Shown here piece after piece: positions 5,607-41,749 of a DNA stretch of 41,749 nucleotides (position 1 is its first letter; each line of letters begins with the position of its first letter). This stretch comes from a virus. The position numbers were made by a program, and so were the translations under genes. The notes below the pieces were generated by a model. That model had not been told where the DNA came from, made no database searches, and was given only the letters and a program-made list of their open reading frames with translations. The DNA is taken from the UHGV virus genome UHGV-1286557. One strand, 5' to 3'.

Positions 5607-5636
5607 TTCGTTTGCTCCTGTGTAGTTGACGATATG

Positions 5637-5666
5637 AGTATAATCATATTGCAACCAACATTGCAA
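5637..5666 (-). promoter_or_regulatory. sigma70-like promoter TTGCAA-N18-TATACT, with ATGTTGGTTGCAATAT motif as spacer, driving the packaging gene block
   Basis: Minus-strand reading is cTTGCAATGTTGGTTGCAATATGATTATACT. -35 at 5661-5666, -10 at 5637-5642; downstream RBS AGGAG and ATG at 5606. Confidence 0.55.
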
Positions 5667-8858: not shown

Positions 8859-9038
8859 TTACTCTCTTTTGGTTGCTTTTCTCTTCGCAACCAATTTCGA
8901 TTTACTAAGGCGTTTCGCCTCCCTGGACTTCATGCTGCCAATATATCGAGTTAACCAAACCTCGACACTCAATCCGCACTGTTCAGCCCTCTGTGAGATG
9001 TATTCGTACGCATTGTCTGACACTGTTATTTGCTTCAT
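8859..9038 (-). CDS. ribbon-helix-helix (CopG/Arc-like) DNA-binding protein, 59 aa
   Basis: Not in the ORF track. ATG 9036-9038 with RBS CAGGAGG; MKQITVSDNAYEYISQRAEQCGLSVEVWLTRYIG fits the RHH beta-strand plus two helices; basic tail. Immediately downstream of repeat A. Confidence 0.45.
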   Translation of the reverse strand: MKQITVSDNAYEYISQRAEQCGLSVEVWLTRYIGSMKSREAKRLSKSKLVAKRKATKRE

Positions 9039-9084
9039 ATTCCCGCCTCCTGATACTTGCTGCCGTGATATTTACATTCTAGCT

Positions 9085-9372
9085 ATTGCGAACTCGCAAA
9101 AAATATGATACGATCACTGCGTTCTCTTGGCGACGCCCGCCAAAGGGCAGCTCGCCTGAGACGCAATAACGTGATCGACTCACTTTGCGAAACAAAATCC
9201 CTCCATAAATCAATCACTTACCTACCGACTCGCAATCCATTTTTGCGAAAACCAACAAAAACGTCCTAAGTCCTTGAAAACGTTACTCGCAATTTCATTC
9301 GCAAAATTTTGCGAGTCTTGCGAGTCGATTCGCATTACTCGCAACACGTATTATTTTACGAGTTTAAGTCCT
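9085..9372. repeat. repeat A: ~290-bp iteron/palindrome cassette, homologous to 41010-41290
   Basis: At least 8 copies of TTGCGA(G/A)/(C/T)TCGCAA; 16-bp perfect palindrome TCGCAAAATTTTGCGA at 9299-9314; TGATACGATCA; GC hairpin. Shared blocks with copy B: CTAAGTCCTTGA and TACTCGCAATT. Begins at the last codons of the primase gene. Confidence 0.8.
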
Positions 9373-11656
9373 CATCACTTGCAACCAATTCCGGCGGGTC
9401 AAAATCGTTTAAGCCAGTCGGCAGCCGGTATTGTTGGTTGTAAACTTCGCCCGTATCCGGGTTGCGACCATGCACTAAAACCCGTCGTCGCACTAACTCT
9501 TCCAGCACTTTTTTATAGTTGCCGCTGGTGAACTTGTTTCCGCCGGCTGTGCCGATGGCATATGGTGAATAGCCTTCCGGGCGATCATCCAGAAGTTCTA
9601 GCTGGGCCACCATCACCTCTTCGGCCTTGTTCTTGGGTCCTGCGCCGCCGGAGGCTTTCACCGCCTCCCGGGCCACTTCGGCAGCTGGCGATTCGAATGG
9701 CGCCAGGGCGACCGGTACCAGATACAGTGTTTCGTCACGCGGCGACATCTCCAGCGGTTTCGGCGTCCAGCCGGACAGCTGATCGGAAAAGTCCGGGCCG
9801 GCGGCGGTGGACAGGTACGCGTTTACCCGGTCGGCGTGCGCCTGGGGGACGTCGATTTTACATTTCAGCAGGACGAAGCCGCGGGGCGACTGCTTGACGC
9901 CGTTACGCGCTTTTTCGTGATAGAGGTTGATCTGGTGCGGCTTGGTCTCGTCCGGCTGCTCGATGAAGTAGGCATAGTCGACGGCGCCATGCAGTGCGCC
10001 GGAGCCGCGGGCGGTACGCTGGCCCGAGGACGACTTCGCCGGGTGGTGGATAACGCCCGCGCTGCCGCCGGTGGTCTCGGAGATCTGTTTCAGCGCTCGA
10101 ACAATCTCGCCCATATCTGTCGGGGAGTTCTCATCGAACGGTTTTTTAGCCGTGCTGCGCATGGCGACGGTCTGGTTAAGCGAGTCGAAGGCTATCAGAC
10201 CTACCGGGGCGTCGCCGGCCGCGTCGCGTATGATTTTGCATACCTCTTTCACGCCCCGCGCGTCGGTGATATCGATGCCTTTATCCTGCAGGTCGATGAT
10301 ATGCAGCCAGTCCAGGTCGTCCTGGTACATTTTCTGCAGCGCCTGCTTACGATGCAGGCTGGTCTCGCCGCCTTCCGCATCGAAATAAAAGTTGTGCGCA
10401 CGCACGACACGCCGTCCGCCGAACGGGATCCCGGCGGAAATAGCCGCCATCTCGCCGAGGACGAAAAACGACTTACCGATGTTTGACTCGCCGGCGGCGT
10501 ACCAGGTGGATTTGAAATTGATCAGGCCCTCGATAATGGGATCGCGCTTGGTGAACAGGGTAACCGGGTCGTCGTCCAGGTCCTCGTCGGTACACTGCCC
10601 GGCGGACGGGCCATCCAGCGCCGCCATTACCTCGGCCTCGTAGACGTAGGTCACCTCTTCTTCGGGCAAATCCGGCAGCAGTTCGGCGATCTGCTTTTTG
10701 CTGATATTGTGAGCTTCCGGTAAATACTGGTCCGGCACACCGCAAAGGCGCAGCATCATGTGCTGGTGGGTGTTGTGCTTTTTGCAGTGGTCGTGCTGGC
10801 ACGCGAAGCGCACCTCGGGGTGAAGCGCATCCGGCATCATGATTGCCGTGCTGCCGTCGGTCCCGTCGTTGTCGCTGTGCTGGTAGTGGTTGGGGCACTG
10901 TATGGCGAAGCCGCGGCCAGAGGATAGCGGTTCGAGGCCCATCTCCCAGCACCATGCGGCGATAGCCTGGCTGTTCTCGCTGGCGTTCTCCAGCGCTTCG
11001 TCGGTCCAGTTGGTCGAGCCCGATTCGTCCGGAACGTCGAACCGGTGGCGCAGTATCCGGCGGACGCTGGCTGGCGCGCCGCGGTGGTCGATGGTCTCGG
11101 CCTCAATGTGCGGAGCGAACATAAGGCGGGCGCGCTGGAAAGCGGTTTCGTCCATCCCTTTCGCGCCGGTCAGCCCGAGCATATCGATGAATTTATGCTG
11201 ACACGGCCAGATCTCATCCGCCAGCATCGGCCGGTCTGTCGGGATGAGGAAACGCCAGGAGCGCGACTTAACGCCGCCTTTCAGGTCGTGCCGGTCGCCG
11301 CAGGTAGAGTAAGCGAAGAAAGTAAAACCGCCGTCCTCCAGTGCGCGACGCACCCGGCGGATCTCTTTGCTGGATACTTTGTCGATGTCGATAAACAGCA
11401 GGGACCTGGAAATGACGTTATTGTTATTGCGCTTGTTGCGCTCAAACTCCGCAGCGACATACGGCAACCGTCCTTTCTTTTCTTCGTAGCGATCTTCGGT
11501 CTCGCTGCCGTCAATGGATACCCCCAGCACGGGGTCGGCGCCGATCTCCAGCAGGTCGTCGATAAACTCATCCCAGGAGGATTCGAAAGCCTTCGGGCGA
11601 TTGTCGGTTTTATGCCGGCCGAGAGAATAGGATATTTTTGATTTTAACCGTGGCAT
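9356..11656 (-). CDS. DNA primase-helicase: N-terminal AEP-type primase with Cys/His zinc motif, C-terminal RecA-like (AAA_25/RepA-type) ATPase
   Basis: 766 aa. LLFIDIDK and FAYSTCGDRHD are AEP-like; CPNHYQH...CQHDHCKKH is a zinc motif; Walker A GESNIGKS and Walker B IAFDSL; C-terminal basic wHTH-like tail. RBS AGGAG. Confidence 0.75.
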   Translation of the reverse strand: MPRLKSKISYSLGRHKTDNRPKAFESSWDEFIDDLLEIGADPVLGVSIDGSETEDRYEEKKGRLPYVAAEFERNKRNNNNVISRSLLFIDIDKVSSKEIRRVRRALEDGGFTFFAYSTCGDRHDLKGGVKSRSWRFLIPTDRPMLADEIWPCQHKFIDMLGLTGAKGMDETAFQRARLMFAPHIEAETIDHRGAPASVRRILRHRFDVPDESGSTNWTDEALENASENSQAIAAWCWEMGLEPLSSGRGFAIQCPNHYQHSDNDGTDGSTAIMMPDALHPEVRFACQHDHCKKHNTHQHMMLRLCGVPDQYLPEAHNISKKQIAELLPDLPEEEVTYVYEAEVMAALDGPSAGQCTDEDLDDDPVTLFTKRDPIIEGLINFKSTWYAAGESNIGKSFFVLGEMAAISAGIPFGGRRVVRAHNFYFDAEGGETSLHRKQALQKMYQDDLDWLHIIDLQDKGIDITDARGVKEVCKIIRDAAGDAPVGLIAFDSLNQTVAMRSTAKKPFDENSPTDMGEIVRALKQISETTGGSAGVIHHPAKSSSGQRTARGSGALHGAVDYAYFIEQPDETKPHQINLYHEKARNGVKQSPRGFVLLKCKIDVPQAHADRVNAYLSTAAGPDFSDQLSGWTPKPLEMSPRDETLYLVPVALAPFESPAAEVAREAVKASGGAGPKNKAEEVMVAQLELLDDRPEGYSPYAIGTAGGNKFTSGNYKKVLEELVRRRVLVHGRNPDTGEVYNQQYRLPTGLNDFDPPELVASDEDLNS

Positions 11657-11697: not shown

Positions 11698-11731
11698 AAG
11701 CCTCTCCGTTTTGGATGAGGCTTATTTTTTA
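11698..11731. terminator. hairpin with T-tract, overlapping the HTH gene stop
   Basis: AAGCCTC-(12 nt)-GAGGCTT followed by ATTTTTT on the plus strand. Weaker in the minus direction (UUUACC). Could act as an attenuator between the regulator gene and primase. Confidence 0.35.
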
Positions 11732-11958
11732 TCCGGGGTGCCTTCCCCAAGCGCAAGCCAGCGAGCATCGCACTCCAGCGCGTCCGCCAGGCGAAAGATA
11801 CGCTCCATATTCAGGCTTTTAGTCCGCCCGTTCTGCACAAATGATAAAGCCGACTGCGAGAGACCCCCGCGCATTACAACATCTTGCTGGCGCAGGCCAA
11901 GCTGTTTCATCCGCGCATTAACGCGGAGCTGGAAAGGGTTACGGCGTGCTGTTGCCAT
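11722..11958 (-). CDS. XRE-family HTH transcriptional regulator (Cro/C-type, no peptidase domain)
   Basis: 78 aa. LGLRQQDVVMRGGLSQSALSFVQNGRTKSLNMERIFRLADALECDARWL is a classic HTH_XRE. First gene of the leftward operon, at the divergent control region. Confidence 0.8.
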   Translation of the reverse strand: MATARRNPFQLRVNARMKQLGLRQQDVVMRGGLSQSALSFVQNGRTKSLNMERIFRLADALECDARWLALGEGTPDKK

Positions 11959-12702: not shown

Positions 12703-13401
12703 ATGCGCCTTACCAAAGATATTAAAAACCAGCTGATCACTAACTTGCTGAAACAAGCCCCTCTCGGCCTGCGCGCCATCGCGTGCATGGAAGAGCGCCG
12801 CGACATTGTGAAGACCGCGCGCCTGCTGTGCCTCGCTGCCGAGAAGACAACCGACCTGGAGATCCGCGGCCTGCGTGAAATGATTAAGCGCAAGGGTGCG
12901 GCGGTCGACAATAATTTTGTAAGTGTCTATGCCGCGGTTTGCGAAGTGGACAAAGACAATTATCACTCTTACACCATCGACTTTGCCGTCGGTGGCGAGG
13001 TCCAGTGTCGAATGCTGGACGGGTTCGACCGCTACTATCAGCCAGGGATCGGGCGCCGTGCGCTTCATGATAGTGAATATTTTGGCTGGTGGCTGTATGA
13101 GCTGGCGGAGTTCAAGGATGATGGCTACTTCCTGCCGCGTGAGCGCGTCCTGATCGATGCCGACCCGGCATTGCAGGAGCGTATCGCGAAAGCGGATGCG
13201 GAGTATCGGGACCTGTTCTCGGAAGTTGTAGCATGGCGCGCGACCATGCGCTCAAATCTGTCGGCGGTGAACACTTCCGAGAAATTGCGCGAAGTATGGC
13301 CGGAAGCATTCCCATTCTTACCGGCGCAGGCCAAAACGCAGACGGCAGCGATCGCACTGTCACCTGAAACCCTTAACGCTTTATGTGGGCTACCAAAATG
13401 A
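12703..13401 (+). CDS. hypothetical early protein
   Basis: 232-aa ORF with good coding character; second gene of the early operon. Confidence 0.55.
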   Translation: MRLTKDIKNQLITNLLKQAPLGLRAIACMEERRDIVKTARLLCLAAEKTTDLEIRGLREMIKRKGAAVDNNFVSVYAAVCEVDKDNYHSYTIDFAVGGEVQCRMLDGFDRYYQPGIGRRALHDSEYFGWWLYELAEFKDDGYFLPRERVLIDADPALQERIAKADAEYRDLFSEVVAWRATMRSNLSAVNTSEKLREVWPEAFPFLPAQAKTQTAAIALSPETLNALCGLPK

Positions 13402-13658
13402 AATATACCCTTATGAAAGGCCGCGACTCCCGAGACAACGTGATCGCCTTCTGGCTCCTGCGCACAGACGGCGAGACGAAAGAATGCGCTTACCTCGGCA
13501 AATGCCCGCCGCCGGGTAACCGTGGCGCGCAGGCCGCCCGCATTAAGCAGGTGACCATGGTTAAGCCAGATTTTTATGTCTTTGAGGACCAGTCGATGTT
13601 TGCGCTTCACTGCGACTATGCGTCGGCGTCACTGGTCGCAACCTGGGAGACCGTGTAA
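13383..13658 (+). CDS. hypothetical protein
   Basis: 91-aa ORF (alternative start at 13398). Its stop overlaps the DUF2800 start (TAATG). Confidence 0.4.
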   Translation: MWATKMKYTLMKGRDSRDNVIAFWLLRTDGETKECAYLGKCPPPGNRGAQAARIKQVTMVKPDFYVFEDQSMFALHCDYASASLVATWETV

Positions 13659-15118
13659 TGACCAATGCAAGCGGCAGCAATCACGAACACGCCTTGCTGT
13701 CTCCGTCCGGGTCCAAAAAATGGCTGGGGTGCTCTGCATCCCTGCTGTGCGAGAAGGACATCCCGAACGAAAGCGGCCAGGCGGCCATTAATGGGACCGC
13801 GATGCACGCGGTATCAGAGGACCTTTTAAACCGGCATATTAAAGGCGAGACAACCGTAACAGCGGCGCATTACAAGGGCGTCTACGTCCTGAATGAAGGC
13901 AAAGGCCCGATTAAGGCGGTGGTGGGCAAGCCGCCAGCTGGCTCGGTACTCATCAACGATGAATTCGTGACCATGGTCGAGCGCTACACCGATTATGCGC
14001 TCGGGATCATCTCATCCGCTGAGTACGTGAAGATCGAGATGCGCGCCGAGCTGACTAAGTTACTGCACCCAGGCTATCTGGCTAATTTTGCTGACGAGCG
14101 CACGGGAGAGATCCAAGTTAAAACCTTCGGCACGGCGGATCTGGTTGCCGTTATCCCGCGCACAGACGGGACATTTATGCTGCTGGTCGGTGACCTGAAA
14201 ACCGGTCGGCACGCGGTCGACGCGAAGGAGAATAAACAGCTGATGCTGTACGCGCTGGCTATCCTGGCGAAGCTGCGCAGGCTGTATGACATTACGCTGG
14301 TGCGCCTGGCGATATTCCAGCCTTATTGCGGTGGCCCGTCAGAGTGGGACATCACACCGGAGGGACTGGACATCTTCCGTAAGTTCGCCAGCAAGCGCGC
14401 GATCGAGGCGCTAGACGTGTACTACGGCGGTAAGAAAAATCTTAAGGCCAACCATTTCAAGCCCTCGGCCGACGCGTGCCAGTGGTGCCGGTTCAACGAG
14501 AAATGCAACGCCAGGACGAAGGCCGCTATCCAAACGGGCGGCACTACGGCAACCGATGCCGACCTGGGCGACGAGCGGCCTGCTACGGCATTCGAGGCGC
14601 TGGAAGCGATTCGCAAATTGTGCAACGATGCTGATGTTATGGACGTGTGGGACCACGTAACGCCTCATACAATACTTGCGCTCATTCCGGATCAAGAGAC
14701 TCCGAAGGCCGACGACAATCACGAAATGACGCCGGAGGAGCTGAAAGCGGCCTATGAAAAGCTGCCGGAGTTGCGCCAGCACATCGCCACGATCGAAAAG
14801 GCTATGCATGCTGCGTTGCTGTCCGGCGTTGCGGTGCCCGGCTATAAGCTGGTTACAGGTAACGAGGGTAATCGCAAATGGTCTGATGCCTCGAAGGTTA
14901 CCGAGACGCTGGAAGGCGCCCGCATCAAGCGCGATATGATGTACAAGGAATCGCTGATCTCGCCTACCGACGCGGAGAAAGTCTTTAAGACCGAGAAGCC
15001 GCGGATCTGGCGACGCCTTGAAAAGCTGATCGAGCGCGCCCCCGGCAAGCCAACAATTGCGGCAGCGGACGACCCGCGCGCCGAGTGGAAACAAGCATCC
15101 GATGAGGATTTATCATGA
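13658..15118 (+). CDS. DUF2800 / Cas4-like PD-(D/E)XK exonuclease with 4-Cys cluster
   Basis: 486 aa. N-terminal HALLSPSGSKKWLGC...C; GTADLVAV...VGDLKTG (D...D/ExK); C-terminal C-x2-C-x5-C (CQWCRFNEKC), typical of Cas4/RecB-type Fe-S nucleases. Confidence 0.75.
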   Translation: MTNASGSNHEHALLSPSGSKKWLGCSASLLCEKDIPNESGQAAINGTAMHAVSEDLLNRHIKGETTVTAAHYKGVYVLNEGKGPIKAVVGKPPAGSVLINDEFVTMVERYTDYALGIISSAEYVKIEMRAELTKLLHPGYLANFADERTGEIQVKTFGTADLVAVIPRTDGTFMLLVGDLKTGRHAVDAKENKQLMLYALAILAKLRRLYDITLVRLAIFQPYCGGPSEWDITPEGLDIFRKFASKRAIEALDVYYGGKKNLKANHFKPSADACQWCRFNEKCNARTKAAIQTGGTTATDADLGDERPATAFEALEAIRKLCNDADVMDVWDHVTPHTILALIPDQETPKADDNHEMTPEELKAAYEKLPELRQHIATIEKAMHAALLSGVAVPGYKLVTGNEGNRKWSDASKVTETLEGARIKRDMMYKESLISPTDAEKVFKTEKPRIWRRLEKLIERAPGKPTIAAADDPRAEWKQASDEDLS

Positions 15119-20974: not shown

Positions 20975-22018
20975 ATGAACTATTACAACGAGTGGGATCC
21001 GCAGGCCGCCGCATGGCTTCGCGAACTTATCGAAAATAAACTTATTCCGGAAGGCGTCGTAGATGAAAGATCAATTACCGAAGTACAAGCCAAAGACCTC
21101 AAAGGCTTTACACAATGCCACTTCTTCGCAGGAGTTGGAGGCTGGCCTCTTGCGTTACAGATCGCAGGAATTCCCGCGACTCAACGCCTGTGGACGGGCA
21201 GTCCGCCGTGCCAGCCTTTTAGCGTGGCTGGAGCAGGAAAAGGGAAAGACGACCCACGTCACCTGGCTCCTACCTTTCTCAATCTCATCGCGGACTGCCG
21301 ACCTGCACTCATGTTTGGGGAACAAGTTGCGGCAGCAGTTACCAAAGATTTCTGGATCGATTCTTTACTCTTTGAACTGGAGGAAGAAGGCTACTCCAGC
21401 GGGTTTAGCGTACTTCCAGCTTGTGGCGTCGGCGCACCGCACAAACGCGATCGACTTTTCTTCGGCGCGTGCCGGATGGCCAACGGTGACGACGATAGAC
21501 AACAATCAGGTAGCTGGAGAAGGCGCGGCAGCGAACCATCCGGCAAGGGGAACGACATTAGGCGGGGCAGTGCGCTTAACAAACTGGCCGACACATACAG
21601 CGAACAACGGAACCGGGGCAGGGACGAGCGGTCGAGAAGGAGGATTGAATCTGCAAACGGCAGCGGCGATCGTAGCGTGGCCCACACCGACAGCGAACGA
21701 TTTCAAAGGGAGCGGAGAGACAGTGATTCGCAAGGACGGGAAGGACCGGACTTTCGACAGACTGGACTACTCGACGGAGCAGGGGCTGAAAATAACACAG
21801 CCAATCCGGGTCATGGCTTCTGGTCAGATGCTGACTGGCTCGGATGCAGGGATGGAAAATTCAGGCCAGTTGAATCCGGCACATTCCCGCTGGCTAATGG
21901 GATTCCCGCCCGAGTGGGACGCCTGCGCGGTTATGGCAATGCAATCGTCCCGCAAGTCGCCGCCGAATTCATCAAAGCATTCATGGCGGCCAAAGCAGAA
22001 ACCGAAACTAAGGCTTAA
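20975..22018 (+). CDS. DNA (cytosine-5)-methyltransferase; conserved motifs split across two reading frames (two compensating frameshifts: pseudogene or sequencing error)
   Basis: The 20975 frame carries motifs I FAGVGGW, IV PPCQPFS, VI FGEQV and VIII HKRDRLFF, then turns low-complexity (R/S/D/G-rich) from about 21473. The +1 frame (listed as 21063..22031) carries WPTxTA repeats and motif IX RWLMGFPPEW (about 21888). Motif X GYGNAIVPQVAAEFIKAF is back in the first frame (about 21932). Confidence 0.55.
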   Translation: MNYYNEWDPQAAAWLRELIENKLIPEGVVDERSITEVQAKDLKGFTQCHFFAGVGGWPLALQIAGIPATQRLWTGSPPCQPFSVAGAGKGKDDPRHLAPTFLNLIADCRPALMFGEQVAAAVTKDFWIDSLLFELEEEGYSSGFSVLPACGVGAPHKRDRLFFGACRMANGDDDRQQSGSWRRRGSEPSGKGNDIRRGSALNKLADTYSEQRNRGRDERSRRRIESANGSGDRSVAHTDSERFQRERRDSDSQGREGPDFRQTGLLDGAGAENNTANPGHGFWSDADWLGCRDGKFRPVESGTFPLANGIPARVGRLRGYGNAIVPQVAAEFIKAFMAAKAETETKA

Positions 22019-22020
22019 AC

Positions 22021-22512
22021 ATGGCGGATAAATCAAACACGGCGCCGGAGGATAAAGACTGCTGGCGCTCACCTCCGGAGATATTCGATCCGCTCAATGA
22101 GCGGTTTAATTTCCGCTACGATATGGCGGCAGCAGATCACAATGCCCTTTGCGCACGGTACTACACCGAACAGAATAGCGCCCTGGGTATCGAGTGGCCC
22201 GCAGCATGGAAATGGTGTAACCCGCCTTACTCGAAGCCGCTGCCGTGGTTCCAGCACGCCGCGCAGTACCGGAAAACGGTGTTACTCCTGCACCTGGCCG
22301 TCGCTACGCAGTGGATGGACATTGCGCGCAGGGAGGCGAAAACCATCATTCAGCTGACCGAGCGCATCCAGTTTATTCACGCCAGGACCGGCGAGCGCGC
22401 GGAGACGAAGAACAATCGCGACTCGCAGATCATCATCTTTGGACGTCGGCCTAATCCCGACGGCGCGCGCATCGTCCAGTGCTCGATCGCGGATATCGCA
22501 AAATATCTATAA
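22021..22512 (+). CDS. phage-type DNA N6-adenine methyltransferase (Dam, pfam05869-like)
   Basis: 163 aa. W.SP..IF..L...F.F..D.AA pattern; catalytic NPPY (CNPPYS); size and organisation typical of phage Dam. Confidence 0.75.
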   Translation: MADKSNTAPEDKDCWRSPPEIFDPLNERFNFRYDMAAADHNALCARYYTEQNSALGIEWPAAWKWCNPPYSKPLPWFQHAAQYRKTVLLLHLAVATQWMDIARREAKTIIQLTERIQFIHARTGERAETKNNRDSQIIIFGRRPNPDGARIVQCSIADIAKYL

Positions 22513-22514
22513 AT

Positions 22515-22548
22515 GTTGGTTGCAATATTAGCGGAGTCATATTATAGT
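22515..22548 (+). promoter_or_regulatory. moron promoter: ATGTTGGTTGCAATAT motif with TTGCAA-N17-TATAGT
   Basis: GTTGGTTGC at 22515-22523; -35 at 22520-22525; -10 at 22543-22548. The downstream block ATATTATAGTTAGTTCA is identical to the one at 39461-39477. Confidence 0.55.
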
Positions 22549-22591
22549 TAGTTCATAGGGCGGCGCGGTGCCGCAGATGAGTGGGGATAAG

Positions 22592-39340: not shown

Positions 39341-39437
39341 AGTACGTAGACCCCTGGTCTTTATGAATCCGGGCCACCCGGATTTACATACGCTAAATAT
39401 ACAGGGCAGCGCAAGTATTAACAATATATCTGCAAAT

Positions 39438-39471
39438 GTTGGTTGCAATATGTATGAATCAATATTATAGT
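39438..39471 (+). promoter_or_regulatory. promoter ATGTTGGTTGCAATAT / TTGCAA-N17-TATAGT (same module as 22515-22548)
   Basis: GTTGGTTGC at 39438-39446; -35 at 39443-39448; -10 at 39466-39471; shared downstream ATATTATAGTTAGTTCA. Confidence 0.55.
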
Positions 39472-39503
39472 TAGTTCACCGAAACGAAACCGAGGAAACC
39501 AAC

Positions 39504-40355
39504 ATGATTTTATTTAACTACCGCCCATCATTCGAAGAGGCCTGGGCTAAAACCGATTTCAGGGTTGTTATGGGTGGAATGGGTGACGATACCGCAATGC
39601 TTATTGCAGAAATGTATAAAAGAGGGTACGAGCCCGATGAGATAGTTTTCTGCGACACCGGATCCGAGTTCCAACATACTTATGAGTTTATCGGGTTTCT
39701 CCGTAGCTGGTGTAACGCTAAAAAATGGTCAAAGGTCGTAGTCCTGCGTAAATGGGATAAGCACGGAGAACCGTTAAGCGTTATTGGCACCGCGGAGGCC
39801 AATAACGATTTACCTGCTGCCGCTTTTGGTAAGAAGACGTGTAGCCTGCGATACAAAACCGAGACTGCTGATAAATATTTCAATAACCATCCAAAAGCGT
39901 GGGCCGCGTGGGGCGTTGACGGTAAGGGTAAAAAACTTAACACCCATACCGGAAGTATTTTACGTATCGTTGGGATCAATGCCGACGAACCGAACCGCGC
40001 GGCTAAATGGCAGCCAGAGGATAAGTGGTGCCAGGTATTCCCTTTATTCGATTGGGATATCGGCGAAAAAGAATCCTTGGCTGTCGAAGAAGTTGGTCTG
40101 TATTACCCCGGTAAATCTAGCTGCATATGCTGTCCCCATCTTACCGGAGGGGAGTTGTATATGCTAAAAATGCAATATCCAGAAGACTATGAACGCGTCC
40201 GTAGAATAGAGAAGAATTATCAGGAAACAAAGATGACGGCGGAAAGCACTACGATAGGCTTGTGCCGTGGTAAGACTATTGACCAAAAGCTGAATGAGTT
40301 TTTAACATGTGGCGTTGACCGCGCCGAAGGGGGTAAATGTGAGGCGTGCAAATGA
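39504..40355 (+). CDS. PAPS-reductase / DndC-like ATP-pyrophosphatase family protein (degenerate PP-loop, C-terminal Cys cluster)
   Basis: 283 aa. VVMGGMGDDTAML sits in the PP-loop position (SGGxDS degenerate); CICCPH...CEAC. Opposite strand to flanking structural genes, with its own promoter and terminator. Confidence 0.5.
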   Translation: MILFNYRPSFEEAWAKTDFRVVMGGMGDDTAMLIAEMYKRGYEPDEIVFCDTGSEFQHTYEFIGFLRSWCNAKKWSKVVVLRKWDKHGEPLSVIGTAEANNDLPAAAFGKKTCSLRYKTETADKYFNNHPKAWAAWGVDGKGKKLNTHTGSILRIVGINADEPNRAAKWQPEDKWCQVFPLFDWDIGEKESLAVEEVGLYYPGKSSCICCPHLTGGELYMLKMQYPEDYERVRRIEKNYQETKMTAESTTIGLCRGKTIDQKLNEFLTCGVDRAEGGKCEACK

Positions 40356-40510: not shown

Positions 40511-40738
40511 CCGGATCCAGTTCTGCAGCTGATACACCTGCAGCCTTAACTTTCTCCCGCAATCCATGTTCTGCACGTCTGCATTGAGATCTGCATCACT
40601 GTCCTTTTCCGCCGGCTGAAACTGGCACGGCTTCGTCATCATAGCCGGGGATGGCGTTGGCATTATCGATGGCACGTTGTTTAATCCGCACCCGCTCATC
40701 GTCAAAAGTACAGCGCACACGATCAGGATTTTGCACAT
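40490..40738 (-). CDS. o-spanin Rz1 (proline-rich outer-membrane lipoprotein)
   Basis: MCKILIVCAVLLTMSGCG is a lipobox; PTPSPAMMTKP; starts inside Rz in another frame and extends past its end (overlapped architecture). Confidence 0.7.
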   Translation of the reverse strand: MCKILIVCAVLLTMSGCGLNNVPSIMPTPSPAMMTKPCQFQPAEKDSDADLNADVQNMDCGRKLRLQVYQLQNWIRNITTPL

Positions 40739-40988
40739 ATTTAACCACCTCTCGGGTTATCACTACGGTTTTCTCGGCGCCGGCCTGTTCGGCTTCGGCG
40801 GCCTTCGTATCGTTTACCTGCTGCGCGGTTACCCGTTTCGCCAGTGTCGCCCGGGCCTTTTCTTCCTGCTGTGCTACCAGCTTCGCGCGACCTTCATTCC
40901 AGCCGTTCCTGTACTGCCATTGGCCGTAAATAAACGCAACCAACAACCCGATACTAAGCGCTATACAGATATTTTTCAGCCCCATCAT
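40596..40988 (-). CDS. i-spanin Rz
   Basis: Start at MMGLKN (ATG 40986-40988, RBS AAGGTGG); N-terminal TM, then a Gln/Ala/Glu/Lys-rich coiled coil. Confidence 0.7.
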   Translation of the reverse strand: MMGLKNICIALSIGLLVAFIYGQWQYRNGWNEGRAKLVAQQEEKARATLAKRVTAQQVNDTKAAEAEQAGAEKTVVITREVVKYVQNPDRVRCTFDDERVRIKQRAIDNANAIPGYDDEAVPVSAGGKGQ

Positions 40989-41009
40989 TCCACCTTTACA
41001 TTGCTGCCG

Positions 41010-41290
41010 TTGACTTCTCGCAAAATAAATGATACGATCAGCTTCGCTTTTGAGCGACGCCCCGCTAGGGCGGGCGCGCAACAAGCAATTGAAGTGATCG
41101 ATTCAGCCTACCTCGTTATAACTCCTTGATTTCACTCACTTAATTTCGTCACTCGCAAACTAAAACGGCAGCAACCAACGAAATTAACCTAAGTCCTTGA
41201 TATTTATACTCGCAATTCGACTCGCAAAATTTTGCGAGTCTTGCGAGCCGCCGTTACACGTAATTTATTACGAGTTCCCGGACAGGAATT
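41010..41290. repeat. repeat B: second copy of the iteron/palindrome cassette
   Basis: 18-bp perfect palindrome CTCGCAAAATTTTGCGAG at 41221-41238; TTGCGAG half-sites; TGATACGATCA; hairpin CGCCCCGC-tag-GGCGGGCG; GCAACCAAC at 41171-41179. Begins at the last codons of the MuF gene. Confidence 0.8.
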
Positions 41291-41749
41291 TTGCAACGCG
41301 TTTATCGTTGTCCGCCATCTCGCGCAGGGTCAGCGGCCGGCCGAAACCGTCTACCGACGCAGCCCGGAATTCCTCCGCAGTCATGCCGCTATTACGGAAA
41401 ATATTACCCCGAACCGGGCCGAGCGCTTCATCCTGGAACCACGCCGGCTGCATCTGCAGGAATTCATAGTATGACGTGTCGGCGTCTACCTGTGTGCCTC
41501 CGTCGGCCCCTCGCGCAGCCCGCTTCCCGCCGACATCAAGGAAGTCGAACTCGCTGCTGATCACCGGCGCGGTGGTCGTCCTGCAGTTCGGATGCAGCGG
41601 CGGCAGCGGCCCCTTGCCGATATCGTAGACCTTGCCATGCGGCAGGTTACGGCAAATCGACGAGGTGCGCTTGTCCAGGGTCACCACCAGCTCGTAGCCT
41701 TCCACAATATCGTCGTTTTTCTGGTATACGAGGTTTTTCGCTTCGGTCG
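41268..41749 (-). CDS. head morphogenesis protein (Mu F / SPP1 gp7-like), C-terminal part; gene enters from beyond the window end
   Basis: The frame is open to 41749 (the listed start at 41705 is a GTG). ...LVVTLDKRTSSICRNLPHGKVYDIGKGPLPPLHPNCRTT is the second half of the Mu_F domain. Confidence 0.6.
   Translation of the reverse strand, partial: TEAKNLVYQKNDDIVEGYELVVTLDKRTSSICRNLPHGKVYDIGKGPLPPLHPNCRTTTAPVISSEFDFLDVGGKRAARGADGGTQVDADTSYYEFLQMQPAWFQDEALGPVRGNIFRNSGMTAEEFRAASVDGFGRPLTLREMADNDKRVAKFLSGNS

Follow-up and report, generated by a model that had tools for sequence, protein, structure and literature searches.

A duplicated iteron and hairpin cassette as a candidate replication origin in Guernseyvirinae-like Klebsiella phages

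The viral genome UHGV-1286557, a stretch of 41,749 nt that we call the window, belongs to a Guernseyvirinae-like Klebsiella phage and is complete and circularly permuted. It carries two related cassettes of short repeats (iterons) followed by a hairpin: cassette A lies directly 3' of a primase-helicase gene, and cassette B directly 3' of the MuF head-morphogenesis gene. We consider it fairly probable that A is the replication origin and that its initiator, the primase-helicase, has a second binding site in B. Three lines of evidence make an origin with a layout like ori and crr of phage P4 the best reading: the covariation of iteron type with the C-terminal winged helix of the primase-helicase, the position of the array, and the recurrence of a second cassette in Dhillonvirus. 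What computation shows is the presence and conservation of the repeats, the fold of the winged helix, its covariation with the iterons and the recurrence of the whole layout.

The regions 9040-9375 and 40985-41290, read on the minus strand, which is that of the flanking genes, can be aligned over ∼300 nt with a mean column identity of 78%. A repeat finder independently recovered two segments, D1 (9228-9327 and 41151-41250; 100 nt, 76%) and D7 (9071-9116 and 40995-41040; 46 nt, 76%). The original prediction, made from the letters of the window, of two diverged direct repeats with TTGCGAG motifs is thus borne out, although copy A begins at ∼9040 and not at 9085 as had been proposed. The GC content of the cassettes is 44% in A and 45% in B, against 55.5% in the genome. 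Besides its iterons, A contains a long hairpin, a TATCAT element and ACGGCAGC, and all blocks that had been listed as common to the two copies (TGATACGATCA, CTAAGTCCTTGA, TACTCGCAATT, a GC-rich hairpin and TCTTGCGAG) were found in both. Each copy begins, as had also been noticed, at the last codons of the upstream gene: the first 9 nt of the cassette, ...AACTCGTAA, encode Asn-Ser and a stop codon, at 9356-9364 in the primase-helicase gene and at 41268-41276 in MuF. MuF homologues that lack a cassette end in ...KGL or ...ESL before the stop codon, and primase-helicase homologues in ...DLE or ...DLEN. Judging from these termini, the duplicated unit seems to have given two unrelated genes new 3' ends. 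The closest relatives in the databases are the Klebsiella phages 37P2 and VLCpiS11a, both Guernseyvirinae, and six IMG/VR contigs from one metagenome. In all eight, A and B occupy orthologous positions, and the duplication is therefore older than the clade.

TTGCGAG, or its complement CTCGCAA, occurs 13 times in the window, an ordinary count compared with the 7.7 expected. What is unusual is the clustering, with six sites in A, six in B and one elsewhere. Relaxed sites ([CT]TCGCAA, TTGCGA[AG] or CTCGTAA) number 11 in A and 7 in B. The sites of A are mostly arranged in inverted pairs, the outermost ones being inverted as well, and the cassette has no obvious single AT-rich block at its centre. 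The array starts with a site that overlaps the primase-helicase stop codon. A perfect palindrome of 18 bp, part of the original prediction, is present in B (CTCGCAAAATTTTGCGAG), while the corresponding sequence of A (TTCGCAAAATTTTGCGAG) falls one match short. A search of IMG/VR for the exact palindrome returned four B copies of the same clade and nothing else.

Selection acts specifically on the iterons in both copies. We compared column variability in nine A and eight B sequences of the window clade. Variable columns account for 6 of 77 iteron columns and 26 of 142 spacer columns in A (p=0.04), and for 3 of 49 and 36 of 159, respectively, in B (p=0.011). The comparison of A with B shows the same preference: 48 of the 49 columns in shared iterons are identical, against 130 of 206 (63%) elsewhere (p=8e-8).

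The primase-helicase begins with a BT4734-like N-terminal region, putatively of the archaeo-eukaryotic primase (AEP) type, continues with a Cys/His cluster and a RepA-like AAA_25 helicase, and ends in a winged helix followed by an acidic tail. Pfam matches support the helicase (AAA_25, RepA/DnaB-like, E = 4e-20) and the N-terminal region (BT4734-like_N, E = 3e-5, 24.7 bits against a cutoff of 22.4). The Pfam search gave no match to superfamily 3 (SF3)/D5, Toprim or D5_N domains, and a PDB sequence search with the protein gave no match. Homologues with ∼50% identity are encoded by Kagunavirus/Cornellvirus-like phages, Dhillonvirus and Eiauvirus. The winged helix is the most divergent region of the protein, with 31-54% identity to the window protein compared with 62-76% in the helicase core. 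The acidic tail that follows it (...ASDEDLNS; 9359-9400, minus strand) keeps a D/E-D-L-E/N pattern throughout the family, and brings to mind the acidic C-termini by which T7 replication proteins are docked to the polymerase.

Natural chimeras among the relatives (those denoted by L numbers are genomes and loci of our comparison) show that the iteron type tracks the winged helix, and not the helix-turn-helix (HTH) protein encoded upstream or the rest of the enzyme. In three pairs the helicase core is 98% identical and the iterons differ. L020 and L052 (CGGACAA and GGGGAGA) share 93% of residues 601-675, 98% of the HTH protein and only 42% of the winged helix; for L024 and L031 (TCCGACA and CGGACAA) these values are 92%, 97% and 49%, and for L020 and L049 (CGGACAA and TCCGACA) 75%, 100% and 62%. 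The converse case is given by L028 and L049, which both have TCCGACA: their winged helices are 85% identical, compared with 86% for the core, 63% for residues 601-675 and 42% for the HTH protein. Over all pairs with a core identity of at least 85%, the mean identity of the winged helix is 87% where the iterons are the same (n=29) and 48% where they differ (n=27). These sequence comparisons lead us to predict that iteron specificity resides in the winged-helix domain of the primase-helicase. The HTH protein was rejected as the reader, being 97-100% identical across different iterons and 41-42% identical across the same ones; the divergent promoter region beside its gene contains no TTGCGAG site.

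An iteron array beginning a few nucleotides from the stop codon of the primase-helicase gene is found in many lineages, with a lineage-specific motif of which there are ∼10 types. The array lies directly 3' of the gene in St162, phiEap-2, the Dhillonvirus Envy, L024, L027, L051, L056 and L057. The motif is CTCGCAA in the window clade and in L056, the closest outgroup, whose repeat is of the same TCGCAA type; TTCCGCAC in L057; GGGGAGA in St162, L018 and L052, with 6 of the 7 genome copies of St162 inside 150 bp; CGGACAA in phiEap-2 and L020; TCCGACA in L024; AGGGATA in L027; GGGGATG in L051; and GCGGGACA in Envy, with 17 sites against 1.85 expected. TTAGGTG in L058 was read by eye, and the cluster scan found no group of three or more there. 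For the orientation of the L056 cassette relative to the gene, local alignment gave scores of 27-32, which shuffled sequences also reach (maximum 36), the sites being palindromic. A doublet, GAATAGTTATGCAG-aaaaagt-GAATA(G/A)TTAT, stands among the iterons of the St162, phiEap-2, Envy, L024, L027 and L051 cassettes (coordinates 12718-12750 in L011, the St162 record; 39927-39960 in L054; ∼39600-39630 in L012). It was not found in the window or the rest of its clade, and may serve for priming or for binding a host factor.

A second cassette also recurs. Envy carries one of 197 nt, 85% identical to the helicase-proximal copy and 16 kb away from it, with seven GCGGGACA sites, located between the tail chaperone genes and the tape-measure gene. 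The Envy cassette was found at 465 places in 159 phage records, nearly all of them Dhillonvirus; one GenBank record labels part of it merely as 'repeat_region'. More than 150 Dhillonvirus genomes and the Klebsiella clade of the window conserve the two-cassette layout, in which late morphogenesis operons enclose the second site. In eiAU-183, GCAACCAAC clusters at two places, one on the 3' side of the helicase gene and one immediately upstream of the tape-measure gene, a case that is ambiguous because GCAACCAAC resembles a promoter-like motif found throughout that genome.

The iterons are accompanied by a long imperfect hairpin of ∼75 nt, of which the GC-rich hairpin of the original prediction is merely the tip. 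Its outer stem is formed by the TGATACGATCA block paired with GTGATCGA. The hairpin of B resembles that of A in the outer stem, and its middle part has diverged in sequence while remaining paired in its own register. In the alignment of A, 98% of the hairpin cells are paired, against 20-42% in slid-partner controls. Four compensatory (double) pair changes separate the two A haplotypes, and one stem pair runs C-G, C.A and T-A among the B copies. This covariation is supportive and not conclusive, because the depth is small, with effectively two haplotypes per copy. Three-tier hairpins of equivalent structure and unrelated sequence follow the iterons in phiEap-2, L024, L027, L051, St162 and Envy, and the fold z-scores across the cassette hairpins range from -3.7 to -5.1.

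An octamer, ACGGCARC, was noticed alongside these elements, with one copy just downstream of the hairpin in every cassette examined. It occurs 44 times in the window against 3.8 expected (32 copies of ACGGCAGC, which ties with CGCTGCCG as the most frequent 8-mer of the window, and 12 of ACGGCAAC). The sites, 29 on the minus and 15 on the plus strand, lie both in and between open reading frames (for example 9059-9066 and 41003-41010, minus strand, and 41165-41172, plus strand). The octamer is also enriched in St162 (26), Envy (54), phiEap-2 (42) and eiAU-183 (28). The octamer might be recognised by the primase, act as a Chi-like signal or be a target of modification; for ACGGCAGC the literature that we searched yielded no description.

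Table 1. Positions in the window of the two cassettes, their elements and the adjoining genes
Feature	Position	Strand	Remarks
Cassette A	9040..9364	-	Non-coding 9039-9355 plus last codons and stop of the primase-helicase gene; from alignments
Cassette B	40989..41276	-	Non-coding 40989-41267 plus last codons and stop of MuF; architecture like that of A
Primase-helicase gene	9356..11656	-	766 aa; annotated as replicative helicase-primase in relatives
Winged-helix domain, proposed iteron reader	9413..9631 (residues ∼676-748)	-	Computed fold of the last ∼75 residues
Iterons of A, exact	9093-9099, 9229-9235, 9286-9292, 9309-9315, 9318-9324, 9338-9344		TTGCGAG/CTCGCAA, within 9086..9362
Iterons of A, one mismatch	9086-9092, 9185-9191, 9243-9249, 9298-9304, 9356-9362		
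Iterons of B, exact	41017-41023, 41152-41158, 41209-41215, 41221-41227, 41232-41238, 41241-41247		Within 41017..41274
Iteron variant of B, CTCGTAA	41268-41274		Overlaps the MuF stop codon
Near-palindrome of A, TTCGCAAAATTTTGCGAG	9298..9315		17/18 matching
Perfect 18-bp palindrome of B, CTCGCAAAATTTTGCGAG	41221..41238		
Long imperfect hairpin of A	9106..9182	-	28 pairs, GC-rich tip; DNA fold -22.4 kcal/mol, z = -4.7
Long imperfect hairpin of B	41030..41105	-	DNA fold -20.6 kcal/mol, z = -3.7
TATCAT, -10-like hexamer	9105..9110	-	Abuts the 3' arm of the hairpin; paired by the promoter scan with TCGCCA at 17-nt spacing
Small 'RHH' gene after A	8859..9038	-	Only sub-threshold Pfam matches; not part of the system
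MuF head-morphogenesis gene, 3' part	41268..41749, continuing 1-568 over the window junction	-	Intact 349-aa open reading frame in all
Rz-like spanin gene	40596..40988	-	Directly downstream of B; annotated as spanin in 37P2 and VLCpiS11a

We propose the following mechanism. The winged helix of the primase-helicase would bind the TTGCGAG/CTCGCAA iterons, whose inverted pairs would let oppositely oriented complexes assemble. The RepA/DnaB-like core would open the adjacent AT-richer DNA of the cassette, and the conserved hairpin could extrude and so aid the opening, or serve as a single-strand entry structure. The predicted AEP-type primase domain would then lay the first primers. B would be bound by the same protein, and might act as a second origin or as a cis enhancer like P4 crr, for example by looping. 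Physical binding, DNA melting, priming and the role of B in replication are what we infer from the layout.

Several points weigh against an origin at A with a second binding site at B. A branch comprising L022, L023, L025, L026, L029 and L033 has no iterons 3' of the primase-helicase gene, where we found instead strong terminator-like hairpins (a stem and a T-run, by sequence), genes on the reverse strand or ORF-like sequence; any iteron-based origin of that branch must lie elsewhere. In St162 and phiEap-2 we searched for a second cassette and found one cassette each, so a second copy is not required across the family. The shallow haplotype depth of the hairpin covariation counts here too. The cumulative GC-skew minimum at 9679, ∼300 bp from A, and the low GC content of the cassettes favour an origin weakly; the amplitude of the skew is small and confounded by gene orientation. 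The winged-helix segment adjoins the iterons of A, and the covariation could partly reflect a single co-inherited recombination block. Linkage alone, however, cannot explain why the unlinked second copies of the window clade and of Envy carry the cognate iterons, which favours function; this is the only argument of that kind. Finally, the T-rich run and the conserved -10-like TATCAT mean that the cassettes may have a role in transcription, instead of or beside one in replication.

This last point is the basis of the foremost alternative, transcriptional punctuation or regulation. The hairpin and T-rich run would terminate or attenuate the upstream operon (primase-helicase or MuF) and TATCAT would restart the next gene, with the iterons as operators that a phage protein (perhaps the primase-helicase, through its winged helix) uses to time early and late expression. 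We regard it as unlikely, yet well worth keeping in mind; it is also compatible with an origin, because many origins are activated by transcription. The promoter scan finds TCGCCA-17-TATCAT in A on the gene strand, and TATCAT follows the hairpin at the same place in B (41029-41034), L057 and L058, with an ATTCAT-like element in other lineages. In the window clade the hairpin is followed by the T-rich TATTTTTT, TTTATTTT or TTTTAATT, and both cassettes span exactly the interval from a stop codon to the next ribosome-binding site. However, the terminator scan did not call the hairpins of A and B, L057 and L058 have A-runs in place of the T-runs, and the -35 element, matching at 3-4 of 6 positions, is weak. 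Among head or tail morphogenesis genes a mid-operon terminator would be odd; in the window it would separate MuF from Rz, and in Dhillonvirus the tail chaperone from the tape-measure gene. Transcription also leaves unexplained the 7-11 sites per cassette and a specificity that tracks a domain fused to the replicative helicase. The sequence originally proposed as a promoter, TTGCGA-N17-TGTAAA, is present but doubtful in that role: it was not among the calls of the promoter scan, and in B it leaves no space for a leader ahead of the Rz start codon. The conserved TATCAT is a better -10 candidate than TGTAAA.

The transcribed strand carries the hairpin, in which compensatory changes have occurred; one pair goes from U-A to U-G on the gene strand, which preserves pairing on that strand alone. 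This would fit a cis-acting RNA structure within the polycistronic mRNA, for instance one that stabilises the transcript or is processed by RNase III, with the short repeats incidental. We think this improbable: the Rfam 15 scan of the whole window gave no match at gathering thresholds, the best-conserved columns are those of the iterons and not the stem, the iteron type covaries with the DNA-binding domain of a protein, and extruded or single-stranded DNA would form the same pairing.

We give similarly little credence to a recombination linker or mobile module, that is, boundary sequences or an insertion resembling a miniature inverted-repeat transposable element that promote mosaic exchange with no function in replication. 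Such an element would account for the Asn-Ser-stop that both copies lend to unrelated genes, for the loosely inverted cassette ends (AACTCGYAAAA...ATACG) and for the recombination breakpoints at the winged-helix boundary. Yet there are just two copies per genome, at fixed orthologous positions in nine genomes, no target-site duplication was seen, and the selection is specific to the iterons. The suggestion that B flanks an insertion between MuF and the scaffold gene does not hold, since spanin genes occupy that interval in St162, phiEap-2 and Envy too; the block is ancestral, and B is not next to a clade-specific insertion.

An operator array for the ribbon-helix-helix (RHH)-like protein, another alternative in the original prediction, can be set aside with near certainty: the gene adjoins A and has weak sub-threshold Pfam matches (SeqA_N, NikA-like; E ∼0.006-0.009), but it is present only in the window, 37P2, L015 and L019, and is missing from the complete VLCpiS11a genome and the L013, L014, L016 and L017 loci (covered to at most 10 kb either way from the helicase gene), where both cassettes are kept with intact iterons, so its product is not the iteron reader.

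The origin reading places the cassettes beside several known systems. The alpha protein of P4 is a primase-helicase of ∼770 aa with a C-terminal winged-helix origin-binding domain, and the origin iterons stand beside the 3' end of its gene. The same iterons recur in a second distant cis region, crr, which consists of two tandem 120-bp repeats. Here, too, we see a winged-helix C-terminus, iterons beside the gene and the same iterons at a distant site. The original prediction had compared the repeats with the P4 iterons of the alpha primase-helicase; the link between iterons and primase-helicase is supported by the winged helix, the covariation and the position, whereas homology to alpha is not. 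The phage helicase is RepA/DnaB-like (AAA_25) and not SF3, and the protein is therefore an analogue of alpha. Crr, moreover, is not a full copy of the origin, while B is a whole second cassette. In phage lambda, with its O protein, and in iteron plasmids, with RepA or pi as winged-helix initiators, short repeats are read by a dedicated initiator of matching specificity and easily melted DNA lies adjacent. Those initiators are separate proteins that recruit the host helicase, whereas the DNA-binding domain here is fused to the phage's own primase-helicase.

The Rep proteins of Staphylococcus pathogenicity islands (SaPIs) bind, through a C-terminal winged helix, iterons immediately 3' of rep; these are 5-6 nt long, present in 6-12 copies, some of them opposed around AT-richer DNA, and their specificity varies between elements (PMC9371898). 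The likeness of the proposed origin to the Rep-ori of SaPIs and other phage-inducible chromosomal islands lies in a self-loading helicase-initiator with a C-terminal winged helix and iterons directly 3' of its own gene. The differences are that SaPI Reps are SF3/MCM-type AAA+ helicases and the core here is AAA_25, that the host of the cassette here is a virulent siphophage and not a satellite, and that this phage adds a conserved hairpin of ∼75 nt and a dispersed second copy. ORF904 of plasmid pRN1 requires a stem-loop of ∼100 nt 3' of its gene, the putative origin, conserved in structure and not in sequence, and a stem-loop origin has also been proposed for phage BIP-1 (PMC4234260). ORF904 shares with our protein the combination of helicase and winged helix, to which it adds an AEP primase that is predicted in ours, along with a large stem-loop 3' of the gene in which structure prevails over sequence. 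It has an SF3 helicase in place of AAA_25, however, and pRN1 is an archaeal plasmid with no iterons defined, while here iterons and stem-loop occur together and the whole unit is duplicated. We tested the helicase class, a defining feature of each, and found it to differ; the system therefore resembles those of SaPI, P4 and pRN1 and belongs to none of them. The searchable literature yielded no replication origin that had been defined for Guernseyvirinae, Dhillonvirus or related siphophages that are candidates for therapy. The design itself is familiar, and we found no description of it for this phage group.

MuF has an intact reading frame across the junction between the end and the start of the window, which identifies the window as a complete, circularly permuted genome; because MuF joins end to start, the shorter way from A to B along the circle measures 9.8 kb. 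On the minus strand, the HTH gene (11722-11958) and the primase-helicase gene precede cassette A and a set of small genes. Farther along come terminase, portal, MuF, cassette B and the Rz-like spanin, then a PAPS-reductase-like gene on the plus strand, and the scaffold and capsid genes. The PAPS-reductase-like gene is the sole plus-strand gene within the head-gene block. The genes at 12703-13401, 13658-15118 and 39504-40355 (all plus strand) match Nmad5 (nucleotide-modification-associated), DUF2800/PD-(D/E)XK and, weakly and below threshold, PAPS reductase, which suggests a DNA-modification or nucleotide-metabolism module. A repeat family of three members, AATGTTGGTTGCAATAT...TATAGT (5632-5662, minus strand; 22499-22555 and 39422-39478, plus strand), corresponds by sequence to near-consensus sigma-70 promoters (TTGCAA-17-TATAGT). 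Its copy at 39422-39478 points at the PAPS-reductase-like gene, and similar ATTGGTTGCA motifs recur in Envy, eiAU-183 and VLCpiS11a. The St162 record contains perfect tandem duplications of 256 nt and 91 nt, at 41141-41652 and 21762-21943, which involve the tailspike and portal regions and may be genuine or may have arisen in sequence assembly.

A bolder version of the origin reading, which we put forward tentatively as a possibility, is an obligate two-site system. The winged helix would bridge both units or use them sequentially, as an ori/crr-like loop or an early/late switch, and the unit of winged helix plus iterons would be exchanged among virulent siphophages. If this is true, replicon specificity groups would decide which co-infecting relatives share replication machinery.

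The analysis provides a concrete, testable candidate origin and a putative reader for a large group of therapeutic-candidate phages. If the origin reading is correct, the primase-helicase would be a self-loading helicase-initiator outside SF3, the class in which this design is known. The natural swaps of winged helix and iterons amount to specificity-swap experiments already set up by nature, and they reveal a recombination hot spot, of relevance to phage engineering and to predicting cross-complementation between the phages of a cocktail. The conserved dispersed second copy would offer a tractable analogue of P4 crr in virulent phages.

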